A stretch of DNA of 64,000 nucleotides from Candidatus Saccharimonadota bacterium (lineage in GTDB: Bacteria > Patescibacteriota > Saccharimonadia > Saccharimonadales > Saccharimonadaceae), in assembly GCA_017962365.1 (NCBI GenBank), contig JAGCVL010000006.1, positions 769 through 64,768 on the forward strand, read 5' to 3'. The translations under genes were made by a program, and so were the position numbers. Positions 2,898 to 45,123 of this stretch are shown one piece after another. The first letter of the stretch is position 1, and every line of letters starts with the position of its first letter. The notes beneath the pieces were generated by a model, which made no database searches, was not told where the DNA came from, and saw only the letters and a list, made by a program, of their open reading frames with translations.

Positions 2898-3672
2898 CTG
2901 CGGCGTGGATGACGTGATCGAAAAGACAGGTAACGGTGAGTGGACCGACACCGCCTTTTTCCGGGGTGATGGCGGCGAGGTCAGTGCGATTTCTAACTTC
3001 TGCGGCGAGGTCGCCTTTTAAGACGCCTTTATCAGAGGCGGTACCGGCATCGATGACGACGGCGCCTGGGCGCACCATAGAATCAACAATCAGCCCCGGT
3101 ACGCCCGTTGCTGTGATGATTATATCATACTGATTAAGCTTTGTCAAGTCAGAGCCACGGTGAAAGAGAGTGACGTTGTAATTTGAATCTGTAAACATCT
3201 TGTAAAGTGGGGCGCCGACGAGTTTGCCGCGACCAACGATGGCGATCTTGGCGTTTTGTAATTTGATGTCGTAGCCGGCGAGGAGCCAGTTGATGGCGGT
3301 GGCGGTGGCGGAATCGTAATTTCCGTTTTCAGAAAGGCCGTCAACGTCTTTTTTGGGAGCGATGAGGCTTGTTATTTCGTCAGTCTTATCTTTATTGATA
3401 AGAGGAAGTTGGATGATGATGCCGTCGATGGTTGGGTCGCTATTTGCGTGGATAATCTCCTCTCGGAGCGCGTCCGGTTGAACGTAGACATCCACTACTT
3501 CAATGCCGATATCTTCGCCGTATTGCTTTTTTAAATTAACATATTTGGTAATCACTGGGTTGTCGGAATCGCGAAGGATGAGGAGCTTGGGCTTTTTGGA
3601 CATTTGACGGACTTGGGCGGCCTGGCGCTCCTTAATAAAACCTGCGAGTTCTCTACCGTCTAAGATTTTCAT
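2884..3672 (-). CDS. folD: Bifunctional methylenetetrahydrofolate dehydrogenase/cyclohydrolase
   Basis: The N-terminus MKILDGRELAGFIKERQ, the GRGKLVGAPL dinucleotide-binding motif, PGGVGPLT-like GGVGPLTV and the length all fit FolD. Confidence 0.9.
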   Translation of the reverse strand: MKILDGRELAGFIKERQAAQVRQMSKKPKLLILRDSDNPVITKYVNLKKQYGEDIGIEVVDVYVQPDALREEIIHANSDPTIDGIIIQLPLINKDKTDEITSLIAPKKDVDGLSENGNYDSATATAINWLLAGYDIKLQNAKIAIVGRGKLVGAPLYKMFTDSNYNVTLFHRGSDLTKLNQYDIIITATGVPGLIVDSMVRPGAVVIDAGTASDKGVLKGDLAAEVRNRTDLAAITPEKGGVGPLTVTCLFDHVIHAAAKND

Positions 3673-4763
3673 ATTTCGTTTGGTTCCTGCTCTAATTGAT
3701 AGCCAAATTTATCATGGACGGATTTTATGATTTCGGTGCGGGCAGCAGCAAGGTCGTTGTAACTTGTGGCAGATTCATTGATGAGGACGAGGGCGGCAGC
3801 GTCGCAGACGCGGATGCCGTGGAGGAGTTTACCTTTGAGGCCGCATTGTTCGATCAGCCAGCCGGAGTTGATTTTGAGGCCGTCGTGACCGTGGTAAACT
3901 GGGATATTTTTGGCTTCGGCGGCTTCGGCTTCATCTTTGGTGAGGTAGATGTTCTTGAAAAATGAGCCGGCGGAAGCTTTTTTAGCTGGGTCGGGGAGCT
4001 TGTCGCTCCTAATAATGGAGACGATGTTGCGAATACCGGCAGGGGAGAAGTCGGTACAGTGGTGCTCATCGATGTAGCGTTCGATAGAGTTGTAAAAAGG
4101 GCGGGACATAGTGCCTGGTTTTAACTCTAGAGTGATGGAAATGACGAAATATTGGCCTTTTTTGGTGGAATTTAAAATAGAACGGCGGTAGGAAAAGCCG
4201 AAATCGGATTTTTGCAGGGTTTTAAAAGATTTATTTTTGATGTCGTAAACTTCGGCGGAGAGGAACGTGTCGGCGAGTTCTTGGCCGTAGGCGCCGATGT
4301 TTTGGACTGGAGCAGCGCCGGCAGTGCCGGGGATTTTACTCAAGGCTTCGATGCCGGTGAGGCCACGCTCGGTCGTATAGGCTACGACGGCGTCCCAGTC
4401 GGTACCACCGAGGGCCGTTATTTGGACGGGTCCTGAGGGGAGCGGGTCCTGCCGGCCCTTGTCCTCCCCCATCTTCGCGAAGCTCAGCTGGGGGTCCCCC
4501 TCCAGGGCCGTCACCCGCTCCCCTGGGACGACATCCCGAATACCGGTCATGGTGTTGCGGATGATGACGCCACCAAAGCCGTCGTCTTTTGCGATGGTGT
4601 TGGCGCCGCCACCGAGGATGTAAAACGGGAGGTTTTTTTCGGCAACAAAATCAAAAGCAGGTGTGATATCGTCTAGTTTTTCGATATCGATGACATATTT
4701 TGCGGGTCCACCAAGACGCATCGTGGTGAGCTCGGATAAGGGTACATTTTCGCGAATTTTCAT
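3669..4763 (-). CDS. murB: UDP-N-acetylenolpyruvoylglucosamine reductase carrying a 31-codon GC-rich insertion
   Basis: Motifs MKIRENVPLSELTTMRLGGPA, ILGGGAN and IPGTAGAAPVQNIGAYGQE are present. There is an ATGA overlap with the folD start. Confidence 0.9.
   Translation of the reverse strand: MKIRENVPLSELTTMRLGGPAKYVIDIEKLDDITPAFDFVAEKNLPFYILGGGANTIAKDDGFGGVIIRNTMTGIRDVVPGERVTALEGDPQLSFAKMGEDKGRQDPLPSGPVQITALGGTDWDAVVAYTTERGLTGIEALSKIPGTAGAAPVQNIGAYGQELADTFLSAEVYDIKNKSFKTLQKSDFGFSYRRSILNSTKKGQYFVISITLELKPGTMSRPFYNSIERYIDEHHCTDFSPAGIRNIVSIIRSDKLPDPAKKASAGSFFKNIYLTKDEAEAAEAKNIPVYHGHDGLKINSGWLIEQCGLKGKLLHGIRVCDAAALVLINESATSYNDLAAARTEIIKSVHDKFGYQLEQEPNEI
4436..4524. repeat. GC-rich palindromic insertion element, in frame within murB (divergent family member)
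   Basis: Terminal 12-bp inverted repeat aggggagcgggt (4436-4447) / acccgctcccct (4513-4524). Central palindrome cttcgcgaag at 4473-4482. An 8-bp direct repeat agggccgt occurs at 4411-4418 and 4504-4511. Confidence 0.75.
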
Positions 4764-6700: not shown

Positions 6701-7466
6701 GATAAAGGATTTTAAAACGGCGAGCGGGGAGCTGGTTTTTGATTCTAAAGAGAATGATGATAAAAAAGTTGTCGGGCGTGGCAAGCTAATAATTACCGAG
6801 TTGAAGGCTGGCGTAAAGAATCCAGAACGAGTAAATGTATATATTAATGGGAAATTTTCCTTTTCGCTTGATATAGCGCAGGTGGTGGAATTTAAAATTA
6901 GGGTTGGTGCGGAAATTTCCGAAGAAAAATTGAGCGAGCTTAGGTCGGCATCGGATTTTGGGAAATTGTACCAGAGAACGCTTGAGTGGGTGCTTGTTCA
7001 GCCACGTTCAGTAAGGGAGGTGAGAGAATATCTTGCAAGAAAACTCAGGAATAGCCTTCGAGGACCTTCCGCGACTAACGAGGAGCGGTGGAGCGAAGTC
7101 CCGCCCGTAACGACGGGCCGGGACGAGCGCGTCCGAGGGGGCTATTCTGAGTTTTCTGACGAAATAATTTCACGTTTGCTTACTAAGGGATACCTGAATG
7201 ACAGGACTTTTGCGGAGTGGTATGTGGAAAATCGGTTTGTGAAGAAGGGGATTTCGAAAAAGAGATTAAAAATGGAGCTCATGAAGAAGGGGATATCGAA
7301 GGAAATTATCGACGAAGTGCTGGACGTGAGGAGTGACGAAGAAGAGATTGATAAAATGATTGCAAAAAAGCGAGCAAAATATGATGACGAAAAACTAATT
7401 CAATATCTGTGCCGGCAGGGTTTTTCGTACGATTTGGTGCGTGAAAAAGTGGCGGAGTTAAATTAA
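6687..7466 (+). CDS. recX: RecX-like regulatory protein with an extra N-terminal domain and a GC-rich in-frame insertion
   Basis: RecX-type helical repeats are present (VREVREYLARKL, ISRLLTKGYLNDRTFAEWYV, ELMKKGISKEIIDEVL, LIQYLCRQGFSYDLV). It lies in the recA neighbourhood. The start was moved to the ATG at 6687 (MDIYKIKD). Confidence 0.7.
   Translation: MDIYKIKDFKTASGELVFDSKENDDKKVVGRGKLIITELKAGVKNPERVNVYINGKFSFSLDIAQVVEFKIRVGAEISEEKLSELRSASDFGKLYQRTLEWVLVQPRSVREVREYLARKLRNSLRGPSATNEERWSEVPPVTTGRDERVRGGYSEFSDEIISRLLTKGYLNDRTFAEWYVENRFVKKGISKKRLKMELMKKGISKEIIDEVLDVRSDEEEIDKMIAKKRAKYDDEKLIQYLCRQGFSYDLVREKVAELN
7039..7158. repeat. GC-rich palindromic insertion element, in frame within recX
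   Basis: AT-rich inverted arms agaaaactcag(g)aatagcc (7039-7057) / ggctattctgagttttct (7141-7158). The GC-rich core contains the hairpin cccgt-aacg-acggg. The reverse complement of the core aligns with the der and truB copies. Confidence 0.8.
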
Positions 7467-8063: not shown

Positions 8064-8771
8064 TTATAGCACAGAAGCGTCTTTGATGTCGTATTTTCCA
8101 ACTTTGGTGCGGCGAAGAGCGGTGAGGTAGGCGCCGGTGCCGAGAGCTTTTCCGATATCTTCGGCGAGAGCTCTAATGTAAGTTCCGCTTGAGACTTCGC
8201 AACGGATTTTTAGTGTCGGATAGTTATATTCTAAAATTTCAATATTATAAATAGTGACTTCACGTGTCGGAGTTTCAAAATCTTTGCCAGCGCGAGCAAG
8301 CTTATAGGCTCTCTCGCCATTAATCTTTATGGCGCTGAAAGCTGGGACTTTTTGATTGATTTTACCAATAAAACTCTGGAGACAAGATTCAATTATATTC
8401 AGCTCGGGGCGCGTCGCTCGCTCCCGTCGCCACGGGGCTCGCGCGCTAATCCTCGCCTTGCCAGGCTCCGGACCCCCTTCGCTTGAATATAATTGAATCT
8501 CGCCTTCGGGGTCGCCGGTGGAGGAGGTGTAACCGAGTTTTAGCTCGGCGATGTATTCTTTGTCGAGCTTTAAGAATTCATTGGATTTTTTGGTCATTTT
8601 GCCAGTAAGGAGGATTAAAAGGCCGGTGGCGAAAGGATCGAGAGTGCCGGTGTGGCCGACTTTGACTTTGTGGCCGAGTTCGGTTTTTAAACGTCCGCGG
8701 ACTTTGGCGACGACGCCAAAGCTGGAAATGCCAGCGGGTTTATCAATAAGAATTATTTGATTTTCATCCAT
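8064..8771 (-). CDS. truB: tRNA pseudouridine(55) synthase carrying a GC-rich in-frame insertion
   Basis: LIDKPAGISSFGVV, the catalytic-Asp motif GHTGTLDPFATGLL and PAFSAIKINGERAYKLAR are present. The start was set at MDENQ (8771), because the longer ORF overlaps rpsO. Confidence 0.88.
   Translation of the reverse strand: MDENQIILIDKPAGISSFGVVAKVRGRLKTELGHKVKVGHTGTLDPFATGLLILLTGKMTKKSNEFLKLDKEYIAELKLGYTSSTGDPEGEIQLYSSEGGPEPGKARISARAPWRRERATRPELNIIESCLQSFIGKINQKVPAFSAIKINGERAYKLARAGKDFETPTREVTIYNIEILEYNYPTLKIRCEVSSGTYIRALAEDIGKALGTGAYLTALRRTKVGKYDIKDASVL
8385..8500. repeat. GC-rich palindromic insertion element, in frame within truB
   Basis: Perfect 17-bp inverted arms agattcaattatattca (8385-8401) / tgaatataattgaatct (8484-8500). 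The core gctcggggcgcgtc...cccgtcgccacggg...gcgctaat...gctccggacccccttcgc is about 80% identical to the der copy. Confidence 0.85.
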
Positions 8772-9611: not shown

Positions 9612-11789
9612 ATGGAAATTATAAACCCAATGGGCAAGAAGACTGTCCAAGTGTCTACCGATTGGCTGGGGCGGAAATTGACACTCGAGGTAAACCGAGT
9701 CGGGTTTAGGACGACTTCGTCGGTCCTAGTAACCTATGGCGATACCGTAGTACTCGGGAGCGTAGTTGTAGGGACGAAGCCGGTAGTGCAGGACTTTTTT
9801 CCATTATCAATTGACTACGAAGAGAAGTATTATGCGGCCGGTAAGATTTCGTCGTCGCGATTTATTAAGCGCGAGGGGAAACCGGCAGATGAGGCGGTGC
9901 TCGTAGGGCGGCTAATTGACCGACCGATTCGGCCACTTTTCCCGAAGGGCTATCGGCAGGAAGTACAGGTGGTCTGCACGGTGCTTTCGATGGACCCGAA
10001 TTTTAGGCCAGACTGCGTAGCGATGATTGCGGCAAGTGCGGCTTTGATGAATGCTGGTGTGCCATTTGATGGACCAGTGGCGGGGATTCGGATTGGGCGA
10101 ATTGGCGGAGAATTTAAGGGATTCCTAAGCCATGAAGAGCGAGAAATTTCACCGATGGATCTTGTGGTAGCTTGCAAAGACGGCAAGATTATGATGGTGG
10201 AAGCTGGTATGAAAGAAGTACCAGAAGAGACGATTATTGAAGCGATGCACTGGGCGGTGAAAAATGTCCAGCCAGCACTAGATTTGCAGAGGGAGCTTGC
10301 CAAGCTAGTGGCGGCGCCGGAGCAGGAATATGAATTAGTCTTGCCGGACGAAGCAGTGATTGAAGAGGTTGCTAAGTGGACCGAGGGGAAGTTTGGTTCA
10401 AAGATTCGTGGCAACGTGATGGAACGCGCGCATATTTTGGATGATATTAAATATGCAATGCATGATGAGTTTGCGCTTTCTAAGGGTGAGGGTGAGACTG
10501 ACAACGAAAAAGTTGCGTGGTATGATGAGAATTTGCGTGATGTGTATGACCAGGCGTTTGAGCTTGCGGTGTTTAAAGAAGTGCGTCGCGGTATTGTAGA
10601 AGAGGGTATACGTCCAGATGGACGAAAGCTGAACGAGGTGAGGCCTTTGTCGTCGCAGGTGTCGATTTTGCCGCGAGTACACGGGTCGTCGCTCTTTACG
10701 CGTGGTGTGACGCAGGCGATGAATATTGTAACATTGGCACCTTTGTCGTATGCACAGGAAGTGGATACGATGGAAGTGACTGATGGTAAGAGGCGCTATA
10801 TGCATCACTACAATGCGCCGTCATATACGGTGGGTGAGCCAGGTCGGATTGGGTCGCCTGGGCGACGTGAGATTGGGCATGGCTATCTTGCAGAGCGCGC
10901 ACTTTTGCCAGTTTTGCCATCTGAAGAAGAGTTCCCTTATGCGATTCGCTCGGTGACTGAGATTATGTCGCAAAATGGTTCTACTTCAATGGCAGCGACC
11001 TGCTCGTCTTGTATGGCTTTGATGGATGCTGGTGTGCCTCTCAAGCGGCCAGTGTCTGGCGTGGCGATGGGCCTCATGGTAGATGTGCCAAAAGGTACGC
11101 CGATTGAAACTTCGGACATTGATAAGGCATATGTATTGACGGATCTTATGGATGCAGAAGATTTTGCAGGTGATATGGACTTTAAGGTGACTGGTACGAC
11201 CGAGGGTGTGACGGCGCTTCAAATGGATATGAAAGTTCATGGTCTTCCGGTAGAAATCATGGAAAAGGCTTTGAAACAGTCGCATGAAGGTAGAATGTTT
11301 ATTCTTGATCATATCCTAAGTGTGATTCCGGAGCCGAAGAAGCAGATTTCGGAATATGCGCCGCGGATTGAAAAGTTGATGATCAATCCAGATAAGATTG
11401 GTGCGGTGATCGGTAAGGGTGGTGAGACGATTAACAAGATTACTTCAGAAACTGGTGCAGAAGTAAATATTGAAGACGACGGCCTCGTGACGATTTCTGG
11501 TAATGACCCGGAGAAGATTGCGAGAGCGCTAGAGTGGGTAAAATCTTTGACCGAGGAACCAGAAGTTGGGAAAGTTTACACTGGTACAGTGGTAACAATT
11601 AAAGATTTCGGGGCATTTGTAAATATTATGCCAGGGATTGATGGAATGCTTCATATCTCGCAAATCGTAGAGGGGAAGAGGCTAAAGAGCGTAGAAGAAG
11701 TACTCCACGTGGGCGATAAAGTAAAGGTGCGCCTAGTCGCTATTGACCACGGAAAGTTGTCGCTCAGTATGATTGGGGTGGAGCAATAA
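9612..11789 (+). CDS. pnp: Polyribonucleotide nucleotidyltransferase (PNPase)
   Basis: It has two RNase PH domains, a KH motif (IGKGGETINKI) and an S1 motif (GKVYTGTVVTIKDFGAFV). The start was trimmed to MEIINPMGKK. Confidence 0.95.
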   Translation: MEIINPMGKKTVQVSTDWLGRKLTLEVNRVGFRTTSSVLVTYGDTVVLGSVVVGTKPVVQDFFPLSIDYEEKYYAAGKISSSRFIKREGKPADEAVLVGRLIDRPIRPLFPKGYRQEVQVVCTVLSMDPNFRPDCVAMIAASAALMNAGVPFDGPVAGIRIGRIGGEFKGFLSHEEREISPMDLVVACKDGKIMMVEAGMKEVPEETIIEAMHWAVKNVQPALDLQRELAKLVAAPEQEYELVLPDEAVIEEVAKWTEGKFGSKIRGNVMERAHILDDIKYAMHDEFALSKGEGETDNEKVAWYDENLRDVYDQAFELAVFKEVRRGIVEEGIRPDGRKLNEVRPLSSQVSILPRVHGSSLFTRGVTQAMNIVTLAPLSYAQEVDTMEVTDGKRRYMHHYNAPSYTVGEPGRIGSPGRREIGHGYLAERALLPVLPSEEEFPYAIRSVTEIMSQNGSTSMAATCSSCMALMDAGVPLKRPVSGVAMGLMVDVPKGTPIETSDIDKAYVLTDLMDAEDFAGDMDFKVTGTTEGVTALQMDMKVHGLPVEIMEKALKQSHEGRMFILDHILSVIPEPKKQISEYAPRIEKLMINPDKIGAVIGKGGETINKITSETGAEVNIEDDGLVTISGNDPEKIARALEWVKSLTEEPEVGKVYTGTVVTIKDFGAFVNIMPGIDGMLHISQIVEGKRLKSVEEVLHVGDKVKVRLVAIDHGKLSLSMIGVEQ

Positions 11790-11796
11790 CTAAATA

Positions 11797-11821
11797 AAAG
11801 CTCCCTCTAGGGAGCTTTTAA
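11797..11821 (+). terminator. Rho-independent terminator after pnp
   Basis: Hairpin aaagctccc-tcta-gggagcttt. Confidence 0.75.
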
Positions 11822-11844
11822 AGATATGTTATAATATATAATAT

Positions 11845-25967: not shown

Positions 25968-25981
25968 AAGGCAGATAGCAA

Positions 25982-26015
25982 AAAAAGAACGGGTTTAATA
26001 AAACCCGTTCTTTTT
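25982..26015. terminator. Bidirectional terminator (aaaaagaacgggttt-aata-aaacccgttcttttt)
   Basis: A 15-bp perfect stem that includes the A and T runs, between convergent genes. Confidence 0.8.
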
Positions 26016-27606
26016 ATCTGATGGTGATTAGTGATGGATCCCAACTTTGTGGAAGGTCTTGCTCGGTAAAACCAAAGAGACTTGCCAAAGTGGAAGCGAG
26101 ATTGGAAAGGCCGGGATGACTTAGGCCAGAATAAATATATTTAGTGCGGTTTGTGGTGTTGTCGTAAATGATGAACGGGACTTTATTAATAGTGTGGGCG
26201 GTCTTTGGTTGTCCGTTTTCGTCTAATAATTCTTCGGCGTTGCCATGATCGGCGACGATGACGAGTGCTCCACCTAGTTCGTCAACTTTTTTGGCAAGGC
26301 GAGCAAGGGATAAATCGATTGATTCTAGAGCTATGATTGTTGCATTGACGTCGGCAGTATGACCGACCATGTCGCCACCAGGATAATTTATGCGGATGAA
26401 ACGAAAATCATTCATGCGTTTTAAGGCCTCGTCGGTGATTTCGGCGCTTTTCATCCACGGGCGGGTCTCAAATGGCTCAGTGTAAGATTCTATACAAACG
26501 GATTCTTCGCTGGGATGTTTTTCGTAGCTATTACCATTGAAATAGTAAGTAATGTGTCCAAATTTGACAGTCTCACTGATGGCGAGACTAGGAATTTGGT
26601 GGTCTCCAAGAAAATGAGAAAGTGTCTCGTCGAATTTAATAGGTTCGACAAGGCGATGCTCTGGGATGTGTGCGTCAGAATTATATTCGCACATACCGAC
26701 GAAGTAGACTTGATTTGGGTTGTAATTTCCGCGACTAAAATATGGGAAATATTTACACGTGAAGGCCTGGGCGATTTCAACAGCACGGTCGGCACGAAAA
26801 TCAAAATAGATAAAAGCATCGCCGGGTTTGACTTTACCGATGGGTTTTTCGTCTGAGTCAACTATGACGAAGGCCGGCATGTATTGATCTTGCATATTTG
26901 GATCAATGCGACGTAAAGTAGTGATGGCTTCTTCGGCTGAGTGAAAATAATAATTTGCCTCGCCATTTACCATGGCGTCCCAACCACGAGCGACGACTTG
27001 CCAGTCATTTTCGTAGCGATCTGCGACATAAACCATGCGTCCGCCGCCATCGGCAATTTTGATGTTGGCGTCTTCAAAGTTTCTGATGAATTCCTCGAAC
27101 TTTTTTACATAGGTGAGGGAAGATTGTGGGGCAACATCGCGACCATCAAAAACAGGATGAATGCGAATGTTTTTGACGCCTTCTTCGTAGGCTTTAGTTA
27201 TCATTTTGGTTAGATGACTCATGTCGCTATGTACTCCGCCATCTGAAAAAATGCCGGAAAAATGTAAAGTGTGACCATCTTGCGTTCGGCGAATGGCTTC
27301 TTTCCAGGCGGGTGAATCAAAAATTCGTCCAGTGGTGAATTCATTATTGATCCTAGCGATGCCTTGTGGAACGGCTTTACCGACGCCCATGGTATTGTGC
27401 CCAACTTCGGAATTTCCCATTTGATTTGGAGTGAGACCTACGGATTCGCCGGAGGCGTCAAGCGCGATATGAAAATATTCACTGGCGGCTTTACCGAGGA
27501 ACGGAGTGCGAGCACGAGAAACCGCGTTGCCGGGACCATCGGGTGCAAGGCCCACCCCATCAAGAATTGCAAGAATTATCGGCCCATCATACGACAATTT
27601 ATTCAT
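26014..27606 (-). CDS. gpmI: 2,3-bisphosphoglycerate-independent phosphoglycerate mutase
   Basis: ILDGVGL, NSEVGHNTMG and ADHGNAE motifs are present. Confidence 0.92.
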   Translation of the reverse strand: MNKLSYDGPIILAILDGVGLAPDGPGNAVSRARTPFLGKAASEYFHIALDASGESVGLTPNQMGNSEVGHNTMGVGKAVPQGIARINNEFTTGRIFDSPAWKEAIRRTQDGHTLHFSGIFSDGGVHSDMSHLTKMITKAYEEGVKNIRIHPVFDGRDVAPQSSLTYVKKFEEFIRNFEDANIKIADGGGRMVYVADRYENDWQVVARGWDAMVNGEANYYFHSAEEAITTLRRIDPNMQDQYMPAFVIVDSDEKPIGKVKPGDAFIYFDFRADRAVEIAQAFTCKYFPYFSRGNYNPNQVYFVGMCEYNSDAHIPEHRLVEPIKFDETLSHFLGDHQIPSLAISETVKFGHITYYFNGNSYEKHPSEESVCIESYTEPFETRPWMKSAEITDEALKRMNDFRFIRINYPGGDMVGHTADVNATIIALESIDLSLARLAKKVDELGGALVIVADHGNAEELLDENGQPKTAHTINKVPFIIYDNTTNRTKYIYSGLSHPGLSNLASTLASLFGFTEQDLPQSWDPSLITIR

Positions 27607-41022: not shown

Positions 41023-42447
41023 ATGAAAAAATTACCAATAGTAGCATTGATTGGCCAGACGAATGCGGGGAAATCTTCGCTTCTTAATCGGATGGCGCGG
41101 AAAAATATTGCGATTGTAGCGAGGGAAGAGGGTACGACGCGCGATAACGTGATGGCGACGATCGATGATGCTTTTATTTTGGTAGATACGGCTGGTCTTA
41201 AAGACCCAACGGATGATTTTGAGGCGTCGATTCAGGATCAGATTCAGGATGCGATAGAAGCGGCGGATGTGATATTGGTGGCACTAGATTCTACGAAGTA
41301 TTTCGATCATCGTGATAAGAAAATTACAAAAGATGCTTTGAAATCTGGGAAACCAGTGTTTTTGGTTCTTAATAAATGTGATCTCGGCGAGTCGTTGCCG
41401 ATTGAGGAGTTTAGGGCTCTTGGTATAGCGCCAGAAAATATTTTTTATACTTCGGCAACAACGGGTGTCGGGATTAAGGAACTCAAAGCTGGGGTTCTGG
41501 CAGATATTTCTCGCTCGGGGGCGCGTCCGGCCGGCCCGTCGCCACGGGCGGCCGGCGCTAATACTCGCGCTGCCGCGCTCCGTACCCCCCTTCGCCAAGA
41601 AATATCTACCACTCCCGCTCTGAAGATTGCTTTGATTGGGCGGCCGAATGTGGGGAAGTCGTCATTATTTAATACGCTTGGCAAAAAGCAGCAGGCGATT
41701 GTGTCGAGTCGGCAAGGTACGACGCGGGATGTCAATCGGGTGACGGTGAAATATAAAGGTCGGGAGATTGAGATTTTGGATACAGCTGGACTTCGGAAAC
41801 CAGGCAAACGTGAGGTGGGGATTGAAAAGTTTTCAGCAATACGGACACTTGCGGCGATTGAGGAAGCGGATATTTGTTGCCTTTTGGTGGATTCGACCGA
41901 GCCACATTCGAAACTTGACCAGTCGCTCGCGGGACAAATTGTGGAAGCCGGGAAGGGAATTATGATGATTGTGACGAAGGCGGATTTACTTGAAAATGCC
42001 GAACCGACGAATTTTTATGGTGAAGAGAATATTGGCAATCGGACGGCGGCGGATTTCTTGCTAGACGCCCTCGAAAAGGATTATGATTTCTTGCCGTATG
42101 CGCCAGTGATACTTACAAGCTCGGAGACCGGGATGAATGCGACAAGGATTTTTGAAATGGCGCTTGAGATTGACGCGGCGCGGCATATGGAAGTAAAGAC
42201 TTCGGAGCTAAATAAGATTTTGAATGATGCGATTGTTGCTCACGCGCCGGCAGGTCTAAAAGATACTCGTCCGAAGCCGAAATATATCGTGCAGACCGAT
42301 ACTTGTCCACCGTGGTTTGTGGTGCATGGACACGAACTTGGGCTTCTTCACTGGTCGTGGAAGCGGTATTTGGAGCGAAAAATTCGGGAAAAGTACCCAT
42401 TTATTGGTACGCCAATCATGTTTTCATACCGTTCAGATGATAAATAG
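41023..42447 (+). CDS. der: Ribosome-associated GTPase Der/EngA with a GC-rich insertion in the inter-G-domain linker
   Basis: It has two G domains (GQTNAGKSS / DTAG; GRPNVGKSS / DTAG) and a KH-like C-terminus. Confidence 0.92.
   Translation: MKKLPIVALIGQTNAGKSSLLNRMARKNIAIVAREEGTTRDNVMATIDDAFILVDTAGLKDPTDDFEASIQDQIQDAIEAADVILVALDSTKYFDHRDKKITKDALKSGKPVFLVLNKCDLGESLPIEEFRALGIAPENIFYTSATTGVGIKELKAGVLADISRSGARPAGPSPRAAGANTRAAALRTPLRQEISTTPALKIALIGRPNVGKSSLFNTLGKKQQAIVSSRQGTTRDVNRVTVKYKGREIEILDTAGLRKPGKREVGIEKFSAIRTLAAIEEADICCLLVDSTEPHSKLDQSLAGQIVEAGKGIMMIVTKADLLENAEPTNFYGEENIGNRTAADFLLDALEKDYDFLPYAPVILTSSETGMNATRIFEMALEIDAARHMEVKTSELNKILNDAIVAHAPAGLKDTRPKPKYIVQTDTCPPWFVVHGHELGLLHWSWKRYLERKIREKYPFIGTPIMFSYRSDDK
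41498..41611. repeat. GC-rich palindromic insertion element, in frame within der (best-preserved copy)
   Basis: Inverted arms tggcagatatttct (41498-41511) / agaaatatctacca (41598-41611). The 87-nt core is about 80% G+C by hand count. Internal hairpins are ccggccggcccgt-cgcc-acgggcggccgg and gcgc-taatactc-gcgc. Confidence 0.85.
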
Positions 42448-44755: not shown

Positions 44756-44790
44756 AGCGACGCTGAGGTCTATTTTTTGATGTCAAAAAA

Positions 44791-44827
44791 GCCTCAGGTA
44801 AGGGTGGGCATCACCTGAGGCTATTTT
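44791..44827 (+). terminator. pth terminator (gcctcaggt-N13-acctgaggc + TATTTT)
   Basis: Read directly. The left arm can alternatively pair with ctgagg at 44763-44768. Confidence 0.7.
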
Positions 44828-45123
44828 GGCCCTCTAACGCTTCTCTTTCTATACCGGGAGAGACCCCGGAGCGTAAGCCCACCTCACACAAATTGGGGCC
44901 CGCCGGTTAGAGGGATTGCTAAGCCTTCGAAATTGAGTCCTTTCAAAGTGGAGGTAATACTTATAAACAACAAACCATGAAGAAATTTATTGTCCGAAAG
45001 GGTTTCAAAAGCTCGCAATTTCTGCTATACTAGTAAAGTATAGCGAAATTATAACTTATTTAGGTGCGGTGTGATATGCTTTTTGCATATCAACTGTCCT
45101 TATTATATCACAGGAGAAAAAAT

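Follow-up and report, generated by a model that had tools for sequence, protein, structure and literature searches.

The murB gene of a Candidatus Saccharimonadota bacterium contains a palindrome that is one copy of a dispersed, three-helix hairpin repeat without coding capacity of its own. The gene lies in a stretch of 64,000 nucleotides (nt) of contig JAGCVL010000006.1 (positions 769 to 64,768; assembly GCA_017962365.1), which is called the window below. The repeat family is previously undescribed, and literature searches on palindromic, in-frame or MITE (miniature inverted-repeat transposable element) repeats of Saccharibacteria returned nothing relevant. The analysis directly established a multi-copy family with a conserved hairpin, genome-specific subfamilies, turnover at hot spots, open reading frames (ORFs) that remain open through the element, the absence of a target duplication, and deletion between short repeats. 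With a probability of roughly 0.7, the murB palindrome can be regarded as a copy of a hairpin repeat of ~86–96 nt that occupies a permissive loop, is read through, and has been spread by a putative trans-acting activity.

The Host Gene and the Inserted Segment

The homologues of the murB product are named MurB and place the organism in Candidatus Saccharibacteria. According to the ORF list of the window, the gene is uninterrupted across the palindromic segment, and the GC content at positions 4378–4561 reaches 69–74%, compared with a window mean of 45%. In the features below, L-numbers denote DNA loci of relatives; P-numbers, used later, denote MurB homologue proteins.

3669–4763, minus strand: murB (UDP-N-acetylenolpyruvoylglucosamine reductase), the host gene; a listed ORF of 364 amino acids, with Pfam PF01565 and PF02873 in homologues and matches to solved MurB chains
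4436–4524, minus strand: full repeat unit of 89 nt, made up of a 75-nt core and, at either end, 7 nt by which helix P1 is lengthened; encodes G81–P109 of MurB
4443–4517, minus strand: core, on the coding strand CGGGTGACG ... GGCAGGACCCG, encoding RVTALEGDPQLSFAKMGEDKGRQDP; family alignments A2 and A3
4436–4447: helix P1, 3' arm AGGGGAGCGGGT, pairing with 4513–4524
4513–4524: helix P1, arm ACCCGCTCCCCT (the 5' arm in the coding sense), which includes the family motif CGGGTGACG (reverse complement of 4509–4517)
4450–4459: helix P2, one arm, pairing with 4504–4513; repeat I4
4466–4494: helix P3 (CCCCC.../...GGGGG), the most variable part of the family, with arms 4466–4474 and 4486–4494; repeat I5, fold and alignment
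4473–4482: apex palindrome cttcgcgaag, within P3
4504–4511: octamer AGGGCCGT, element-internal copy in helix P2
4411–4418: octamer AGGGCCGT, host-side copy, within codons T116-A117-L118 of the ITALGG strand, which is conserved
4419–4511, minus strand: 93 nt absent from the sister strains L001 and L004 according to DNA alignments (equivalently 4411–4503, as the ends are repeated)
4421–4436, minus strand: directly behind the full copy, a second, solo 3'-end remnant of an older copy, on the coding strand TCAGGACCCGTCCAAA, encoding SGPVQ and matching the family 3' end GCAGGACCCG(Y)CCAGA

The palindromic segment is foreign to MurB. Three homologous proteins that are 96–98% identical to the window MurB (P0002, at 98%, P0004, and P0006) are exactly 31 residues shorter and read VVPGERVTALGGTDW at this place, and at the DNA level exactly 93 nt are absent in L004 (97% identical) and L001 (95%). 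The in-frame addition of 31 codons to the flavin adenine dinucleotide (FAD)-binding domain that the initial annotation had described is supported. The loop from the GI strand to the ITAxGG strand spans 8–14 residues in ~80 of the 120 nearest MurB clusters and holds inserts of 20–70 residues in ~40 of them. The window MurB has 35 residues in this loop compared with 7 in the solved MurB of P. aeruginosa (7orz), which aligns to query residues 3–76 and 112–362 only, and the insert falls between the aligned blocks of solved MurB. The alignment of orthologues that had been proposed as a check thus finds the insert absent from ~80 of the 120 clusters and also from the MurB structures that have been solved. 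For the filled MurB P0001, only a weak hit to PF01565 is on record.

A ColabFold model of MurB, of modest quality (mean pLDDT, the predicted local distance difference test score, 68), places residues 80–106 in a coil with pLDDT < 50 between strands 75–77 and 113–118. An in-frame, loop-located addition to the FAD-binding domain is supported because the loop is short in most MurB clusters and in the solved enzyme and is modelled as coil. Modelling had been proposed to see whether the insert is a surface loop. The model shows a low-confidence coil between two strands, and a tolerant surface segment is a possible reading of it within the modest quality of the model.

Structure and Distribution of the Repeat Family

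The 12-bp inverted termini and the apex palindrome noted previously are both present, and the 89-bp span assigned to the element agrees with the unit delimited by family conservation. The P1 arms AGGGGAGCGGGT and ACCCGCTCCCCT are 100% complementary over 12 nt each, with 65 nt between them. As a single strand, the segment folds into one long hairpin of −40.2 kcal/mol (z = −3.2), and only 1 of 200 shuffles folds as well.

The family was searched for with a gapped pattern of 24 bases from the core (GAGGGGGACCCC N26–44 CGGCAGGACCCG) in one genome for each of 185,579 species. The pattern matched 73 stretches in 43 assemblies, all of them from Saccharibacteria, with up to 7 loci per assembly. The carriers are assigned to Candidatus Saccharibacteria or Candidatus Nanosyncoccus and come from gut or rumen samples of humans, sheep, goat, deer, yak, buffalo, and cattle. 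Viral contigs gave no match to the core pattern, i.e., no sign of a phage vector. A covariance model of the family identified 103 copies at E ≤ 1e-3 in the 638 kb of DNA analysed, and the copy in murB matched it at 4432–4528 with 82.6 bits (E ~5e-20). The expectation that further copies of the palindrome exist is therefore correct at the level of a multi-copy family; within the 64-kb window itself, the murB copy is the only real match. The next-best matches there are terminator-like hairpins at 25979–26018 (15 bits; stem bases CGGGT/ACCCG) and 44784–44828 (13 bits), and both were judged to be chance matches.

The alignment of 71 distinct copies reveals a common architecture. From 5' to 3' on the murB coding strand, it comprises a partly conserved ACATGG(R), the invariant CGGGTGACG, a variable stem, GAGGGGGA, CCCCC followed by a variable hairpin and GGGGG, then AGGA(R)A, the arm that pairs with the variable stem, GGCAGG, ACCCG, and (Y)CCAGA(R). 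The motif CGGGTGACG is nearly invariant though it was not part of the search pattern. The core measures 69–82 nt and the unit ~86–96 nt; conservation drops off 7 nt beyond CGGGT and ACCCG, which gives a unit of ~89 nt in the window copy. The CGGGT/ACCCG ends are invariant across the family, so that the terminal inverted repeats are conserved there, and the outer four pairs of P1 covary (e.g., AU in 52 copies and GC in 42 at one pair). Helix P2 also covaries strongly, with CG 46, AU 23, GC 16, and UA 7 at one pair. Standard pairs occupy 96.8% of the cells versus 80.5% in shuffles, none of which (0 of 500) reached the observed value, and fall to 33–54% when the partners are slid by 1–3 columns. 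Compensatory changes occur at 15 of the 21 pairs, with both sides changed in 327 cells. These statistics lean towards structure, as the alignment is model-fitted and the copies are related, but the contrast with the slid controls is still large. A scan of the window at Rfam gathering scores found tRNAs only and no family for the element, and a scan at E ≤ 1 of four loci with 7 copies found a 16S fragment only.

Placement and Reading of the Copies

According to crude gene calls, more than half of the copies are inside ORFs. A total of 38 genic copies lie within long ORFs. These represent at least 17 protein clusters that are unrelated to one another, and the ORF is open through the element in each of them. 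Apart from MurB, the hosts identified with Pfam include class I tRNA synthetases (an Ile/Leu/Met/Val-type enzyme and ArgRS), QueA, a TsaE-TsaB fusion, Tgt, exonuclease I, YchF, PriA, a penicillin-binding transpeptidase, and MnmA. The usual reading frame through the element gives RVT.LEGDP, the +2 frame (GD.PGGGPP) is used by some copies, and an antisense placement was seen for three to five. Because the host ORF runs on in every case despite a core length of 69–82 nt, translation is the only economical reading of these sequences, and the genic copies would be translated as extra peptide segments, with RVTALEGDPQLSFAK as an example of the peptide expected from read-through. An intron, intein, or bypassed element was considered and rejected, as every genic copy keeps the host frame open and the Rfam scans gave no ribozyme match. 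An archaeal-type bulge-helix-bulge intron was rejected as well: the 3-nt unpaired stretches are opposite each other and not staggered, and the frames are preserved.

The crude gene calls give 39 sense and 5 antisense copies in genes, and intergenic copies are co-oriented with the upstream gene in 19 cases versus 7. Intergenic copies are often located a few bases past a stop codon and often ahead of a TATAAT box. Some of them supply the stop of the upstream gene from their own TGA in CGGGTGACG. In many loci, copies are found 10–15 nt upstream of a TATAAT box with an ATG close behind, and in two assemblies murB-type copies lie ~20 nt upstream of the 16S rRNA gene (L008 3685–3782 and L016 63–160). 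L041, L042, L025, L033, L059, and L011 are further loci with intergenic copies placed in these ways.

Individual hosts display further variation. At one site of exonuclease I, a murB-type element is antisense in one species and sense in another (L026 1679–1773 and L045 5320–5420), and the two belong to different subfamilies. In the class I tRNA synthetase of the Ile/Leu/Met/Val type there are three or more distinct hot spots, which are occupied by murB-type elements or other families, or are empty, depending on the species (IleRS-like genes of L014, L015, L029, L039, L056, L057, L068, and L077 were compared). ArgRS of L053 carries several elements.

Some of these observations fit an explanation in which selection maintains the repeat chiefly as a structured nucleic acid with a function, recruited at many loci, either as a protein-binding site or as an RNA motif of the sense transcript acting in stability, processing, or transcription, with mobility being secondary. 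The unpaired motifs are invariant even at third codon positions (CGGGTGACG), covariation is strong, G-U pairs outnumber A-C mismatches in the paired columns (26 vs. 11), the sense-strand bias is found in genes and, more weakly, between them, and many intergenic copies stand ahead of TATAAT boxes, after stops, or before 16S rRNA. Nevertheless, we consider this explanation unlikely. Copies are gained and lost among strains that are 95–97% identical, and a site can hold stubs or other families instead, which makes a needed function in murB improbable. Moreover, the host genes are unrelated in function, Rfam has no matching family, and mobile hairpin DNA likewise covaries around conserved loops, as its enzyme must recognise the hairpin.

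The Eight-Base-Pair Repeat

The octamer agggccgt does occur twice, at 4411–4418 and 4504–4511, with starts 93 nt apart, and the peptide duplication described with it, TAL(G/E)G in RVTALEG ... QITALGG, is present in the window MurB. The initial annotation took the octamer for a target-site duplication, which would correspond to a classical miniature transposon that was inserted by a staggered cut and duplicated its 8-bp target AGGGCCGT on both sides. The spacing of the two octamers and the difference of exactly one 93-nt unit between sister strains speak for such an event. The position of the octamers does not. The copy at 4504–4511 belongs to the P2 sequence GACGGCCCTG, 7 nt inside the 12-bp terminal arm rather than flanking it, and the copy at 4411–4418 is the host TAL of the ITALGG strand, where relatives read ACCGCCAT, ACTGCCAT, or ACCATAAT. 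The murB of L002 contains the same core and the same P2 sequence, but its host codons read ACCGCCAT, and there is no direct repeat.

Flanking direct repeats are not enriched in the family either. Across 75 copies, direct matches between true pairs of flanks are no better than those between mismatched pairs (p = 0.11). When positions 4380–4560 were shuffled with their composition preserved, 32% of the shuffles contained some 8-nt direct repeat and 10% contained an 8-nt match between interior and flank, and the octamer by itself is not significant. In addition, 17 nt of the element survive in the short alleles, from which a host Ile codon has disappeared; these alleles are deletion products. A classical miniature transposon is consequently very improbable, and the octamer is not a target-site duplication. 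The other part of the initial reading, a mobile palindrome in frame, holds.

Complementarity between the flanks, in contrast to direct repetition, is better in true pairs (−11.1 vs. −8.1 kcal/mol, p = 5e-8). The idea that the locus-specific flanks of the murB family are inverted copies of the host flank was nevertheless rejected: the extra complementarity is real but modest, and part of it in the window is the stub of an older element. The comparison of IleRS genes did not settle which of the two flanking arms is native.

Evidence for Recent Copying and Turnover at the MurB Loop

At 38 variable columns, copies of the same assembly are 0.70 identical on average, whereas copies of different assemblies are 0.45 identical (p = 1e-12), and two assemblies each possess identical cores at two different loci. 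The murB core of L002 differs from that of the window at 1 base (99% identical), while the genes are 79% identical and the flanks quite different. The likeness of copies within a genome and the near-identity of the L002 core point to recent copying, as far as can be judged from sequence comparison. The same data bear on the possibility that the segment is not a repeat but a lineage-specific MurB loop that evolved in place. MurB orthologues down to 72–82% identity do carry a similar peptide at the same loop. However, genes for no fewer than 17 other proteins, as well as intergenic regions, contain the same nucleotide sequence, the segment is absent in the closest relatives, and the core is far more similar than the gene around it, which leaves this possibility with practically no weight.

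The MurB loop exists in several states among strains that are 95–97% identical. The window and L080 contain a full copy with an older stub, L078 (96% identical) has a slightly degenerate copy of a different subfamily, and L001 and L004 have a 17-nt 5' stub only. At 85% identity, L079 has nothing there but a 3'-end stub, TCAGGACCCGCCCAGGT. At least seven other loci (L077, L068, L018, L046, L043, L061, and L064) likewise have additional 3' stubs next to full copies. Read in the +2 frame, the 3' end of the element gives AGPV or SGPAQ, which explains the occurrence of this peptide in many other MurB sequences. Other lineages have der/truB-type or recX-type elements in the same loop. The MurB loop is an old hot spot.

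The short alleles are informative about the order of events. In L001 and L004 they read CCCAGGGGAGCGGGTGACGGCCCTCGGTGGT and retain the element 5' end GAGCGGGTGACGGCCCT, 17 nt that include the invariant 5' motif, and the GTG of the element stands in place of the conserved host Ile codon, which is ATA in the window, L080, L078, L079, and L002. The filled state therefore came first in this clade, and the short allele arose by deletion between the octamers. The "empty" alleles of L001 and L004 are, on this evidence, deletion derivatives.

Such remnants raise the question of whether the family spreads mainly by homology-driven events, namely, gene conversion or template switching among copies and stubs followed by slippage deletions, with no dedicated transposase. 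This is the most serious competitor of the reading that we favour, though it is clearly the less probable of the two. "Empty" alleles keep element ends (17 nt in the murB of L001 and L004, 13 nt, GACGCGCTCCGAG, in the folD of the window), 3'-end stubs accompany full copies at no fewer than eight loci, different subfamilies and families make use of the same loops, and copies are homogeneous within a genome. On the other hand, homology gives no account of the first arrival at stub-free sites, and the occurrence of copies in no fewer than 17 unrelated host proteins and at many places between genes implies some true insertion activity.

A Possible Mechanism and Its Weak Points

The favoured reading, a mobile hairpin repeat tolerated in a permissive loop, can be put as a sequence of steps. 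The copy would occupy a permissive loop of MurB domain 1, whose native length is 8–14 residues, and in-frame read-through would add ~30 mostly hydrophilic residues that are predicted to be disordered, so that the enzyme is presumably kept. Copying within the genome would be performed by a trans-acting activity that recognises the hairpin and the invariant unpaired motifs. Its substrate is probably single-stranded DNA, and no target duplication would be left. Recombination or template switching with leftover stubs may help copies to re-enter old sites. The octamer is, on this reading, a chance match of helix P2 to the host TAL codons, which served as the slippage or recombination point for the 93-bp deletion. 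Selection would then keep only those copies that sit in tolerant loops without breaking the frame, and those in intergenic DNA.

Several observations weigh against this scheme. No mobilising enzyme was found in the loci of 8 kb or less around the copies, and among the occurrences of the 5' and 3' motifs in 633 kb of fetched loci there was no longer, autonomous version. That diverged genomes share nearly identical cores could be due to gene conversion or strong constraint and not to transposition. Among the loci compared, a fresh insertion paired with a truly untouched empty site was not found. The states of the strains do not follow the tree of identities (window–L004 0.969, L080–L004 0.974, and window–L080 0.952), so recurrent deletion, allele exchange, or recombination is needed. 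The orientation bias is not predicted by a purely selfish DNA model without extra assumptions. Finally, the search pattern fixes two motifs, and the invariance of those two is therefore partly circular.

Other GC-Rich Elements

Three further genes of the window contain in-frame GC-rich inserts.

7024–7171: in recX
8373–8512: in truB
41498–41611: in der

None of them matches the murB family model at E ≤ 10. Their predicted fold consists of two internal hairpins closed by a stem of the flanks, in contrast to the three-helix rod of murB. The initial annotation had linked the murB copy to those in der and truB, but the shared CCCCC..TTCGC motif is too weak as a link, and the likeness is one of style only. 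The recX, truB, and der elements are parallel families with no demonstrable kinship to that of murB.

The der/truB-type family has the motif CCCGTCGCCACGGG (window 8373–8512, L027, L034, L052, and L001). Its copies are flanked by inverted repeats of 12–29 nt that are locus-specific, AT-rich, and different for each copy; these arms are explained neither by a terminal repeat of fixed sequence nor by the direct duplication of a target. In folD of L001 (11147–11224), a truB-type core is present in frame, and it is absent in the window (3474–3482). The "empty" folD of the window has 13 nt equal to the core end GACGCGCTCCGAG, with complementary flanks GTGGATGTCT / AGATTATCCAC already in place. The recX site contains three different GC-rich cores in the window (7024–7171), L001 (7256–8035), and L002 (7319–8095). 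The outer stem AGAAAACTCA/TGAGTTTTCT is common to all three, and the inner stems differ yet stay complementary. In L079 (490–1155), recX has no insert, and RecX measures 221 amino acids.

In der, the GC-rich linker core at 41512–41597 (86 nt) has a counterpart in a 93%-identical Der orthologue (L081 1938–2127), where the same site holds the reverse complement of the core without a single deviation (86 of 86 bases). Between the two, the inverted arms on either side show a compensating pair of differences (ATATTTCT/AGAAATAT vs. ATGTTTCT/AGAAACAT), and both orientations of the core are open in the der frame. The der element looks like an intragenic invertible cassette. A clean empty der site was not found among close orthologues, most of which contain the element. 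The inversion in place with compensating arm changes, together with the sharing of the MurB loop by three families, suggests a bolder and rather speculative idea, which we hold to be improbable: a Saccharibacteria-specific system in which a dedicated, structure-recognising enzyme would install, swap, and flip short cassettes, both in fixed loops of essential proteins and at sites close to promoters. If true, such a system would generate variants of protein loops or of expression in an organism with a very small genome.

The window also contains GC-rich islands at 417, 4253, 45630, 46531, and 58148, which were examined and are not hairpin elements. At ~415–500 there is a GC-rich tandem repeat of three to four copies with a unit of ~24 nt (GTCGTCCCGACCGAGGCTCAA...), likewise not a hairpin element. 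In the lepA–pnp interval, L001 (1872–2931) and L002 (2217–3281) carry a gene of ~1 kb (322–324 amino acids, no Pfam hit). The window has no counterpart of this gene, and the matches on either side of it are only ~35 nt apart there (~11789–11824).

Comparison with Known Systems and Significance

The closest analogues are the Rickettsia palindromic elements (RPEs) of Ogata et al. (2000 and 2002), which are gene-less repeat families with nearly half of their copies in frame in unrelated metabolic genes (PMC10969869). In both cases, each small genome contains numerous copies of a short palindromic repeat without its own gene, a good part of the copies lie in frame in unrelated housekeeping genes as translated extra segments thought to be tolerated, and a genome holds several families. 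The multi-copy dispersal, the stable hairpin, and the in-frame placement in unrelated open ORFs that typify RPEs were all found here. The likeness was judged from the published description (PMC10969869); homology at the sequence level would not be expected in view of the host and the base composition. The differences concern the host (Saccharibacteria vs. Alphaproteobacteria), the length (~90 nt vs. ~100–150 nt), and the Saccharibacteria element being GC-rich in a genome of 45% GC, with a defined three-helix architecture and invariant unpaired motifs. By analogy, the family can be described as an RPE-like system in a new phylum.

MITEs are defined by target-site duplications and usually have a parent insertion sequence (IS). 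The bacterial ones (Correia, ERIC, and RUP; reviewed in PMC10969869) resemble the Saccharibacteria family in being small, multi-copy, and non-autonomous, with terminal inverted repeats and occasional in-frame fusions to ORFs. The Saccharibacteria family, in contrast, has no target duplication, no parent in the fetched loci, and arms that vary and covary beyond five conserved pairs instead of forming a fixed terminal inverted repeat.

Repetitive extragenic palindromic (REP) sequences and REPINs, which depend on REP-associated tyrosine transposases (RAYT), and the palindrome-associated elements of IS200/IS605 are extragenic and shorter (REP) or have distinct left and right ends. Hairpin recognition, the lack of target duplication, conserved bases beside an imperfect hairpin, a plausible strand bias, and genome-specific subfamilies are points of resemblance. 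The in-frame genic habit is not a known feature of those elements, and the Saccharibacteria family is not confined to extragenic DNA.

Yeast mitochondrial GC clusters and other organelle hairpins are organellar, much shorter, different in sequence, and probably different in mechanism. General papers found in the literature on hairpins within genes were organellar. The mobile GC clusters of yeast mitochondria are similar in that GC-rich hairpins populate a compact, AT-richer genome, some of them in frame in genes, with hot spots and presence/absence polymorphism (cf. PMC7813641). The der element recalls the intragenic invertons (bioRxiv 10.1101/2023.03.11.532203), as it lies between inverted repeats within a gene, is inverted in a 93%-identical orthologue, and is open in both orientations. 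Unlike them, the der inversion was seen between strains and not within a population, and the murB copy was not seen inverted. We know of no invertase for the der element.

Saccharibacteria are ultra-small episymbionts with genomes of <1 Mb, and they would be the second clear case, after Rickettsia, of reduced genomes in which essential enzymes are riddled with translated palindromic repeats. Such repeats inflate and diversify protein loops and can confuse the alignment of orthologues, the scoring of domains, and the typing of strains. At the same time, the elements are natural markers of permissive loops. The turnover at hot spots, the stubs, and the inversion in place bear on how short inverted repeats reshape coding sequences. 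As a well-defined structured family, the repeats also offer a tractable starting point for identifying the enzyme by which hairpin DNA is moved in the Candidate Phyla Radiation.

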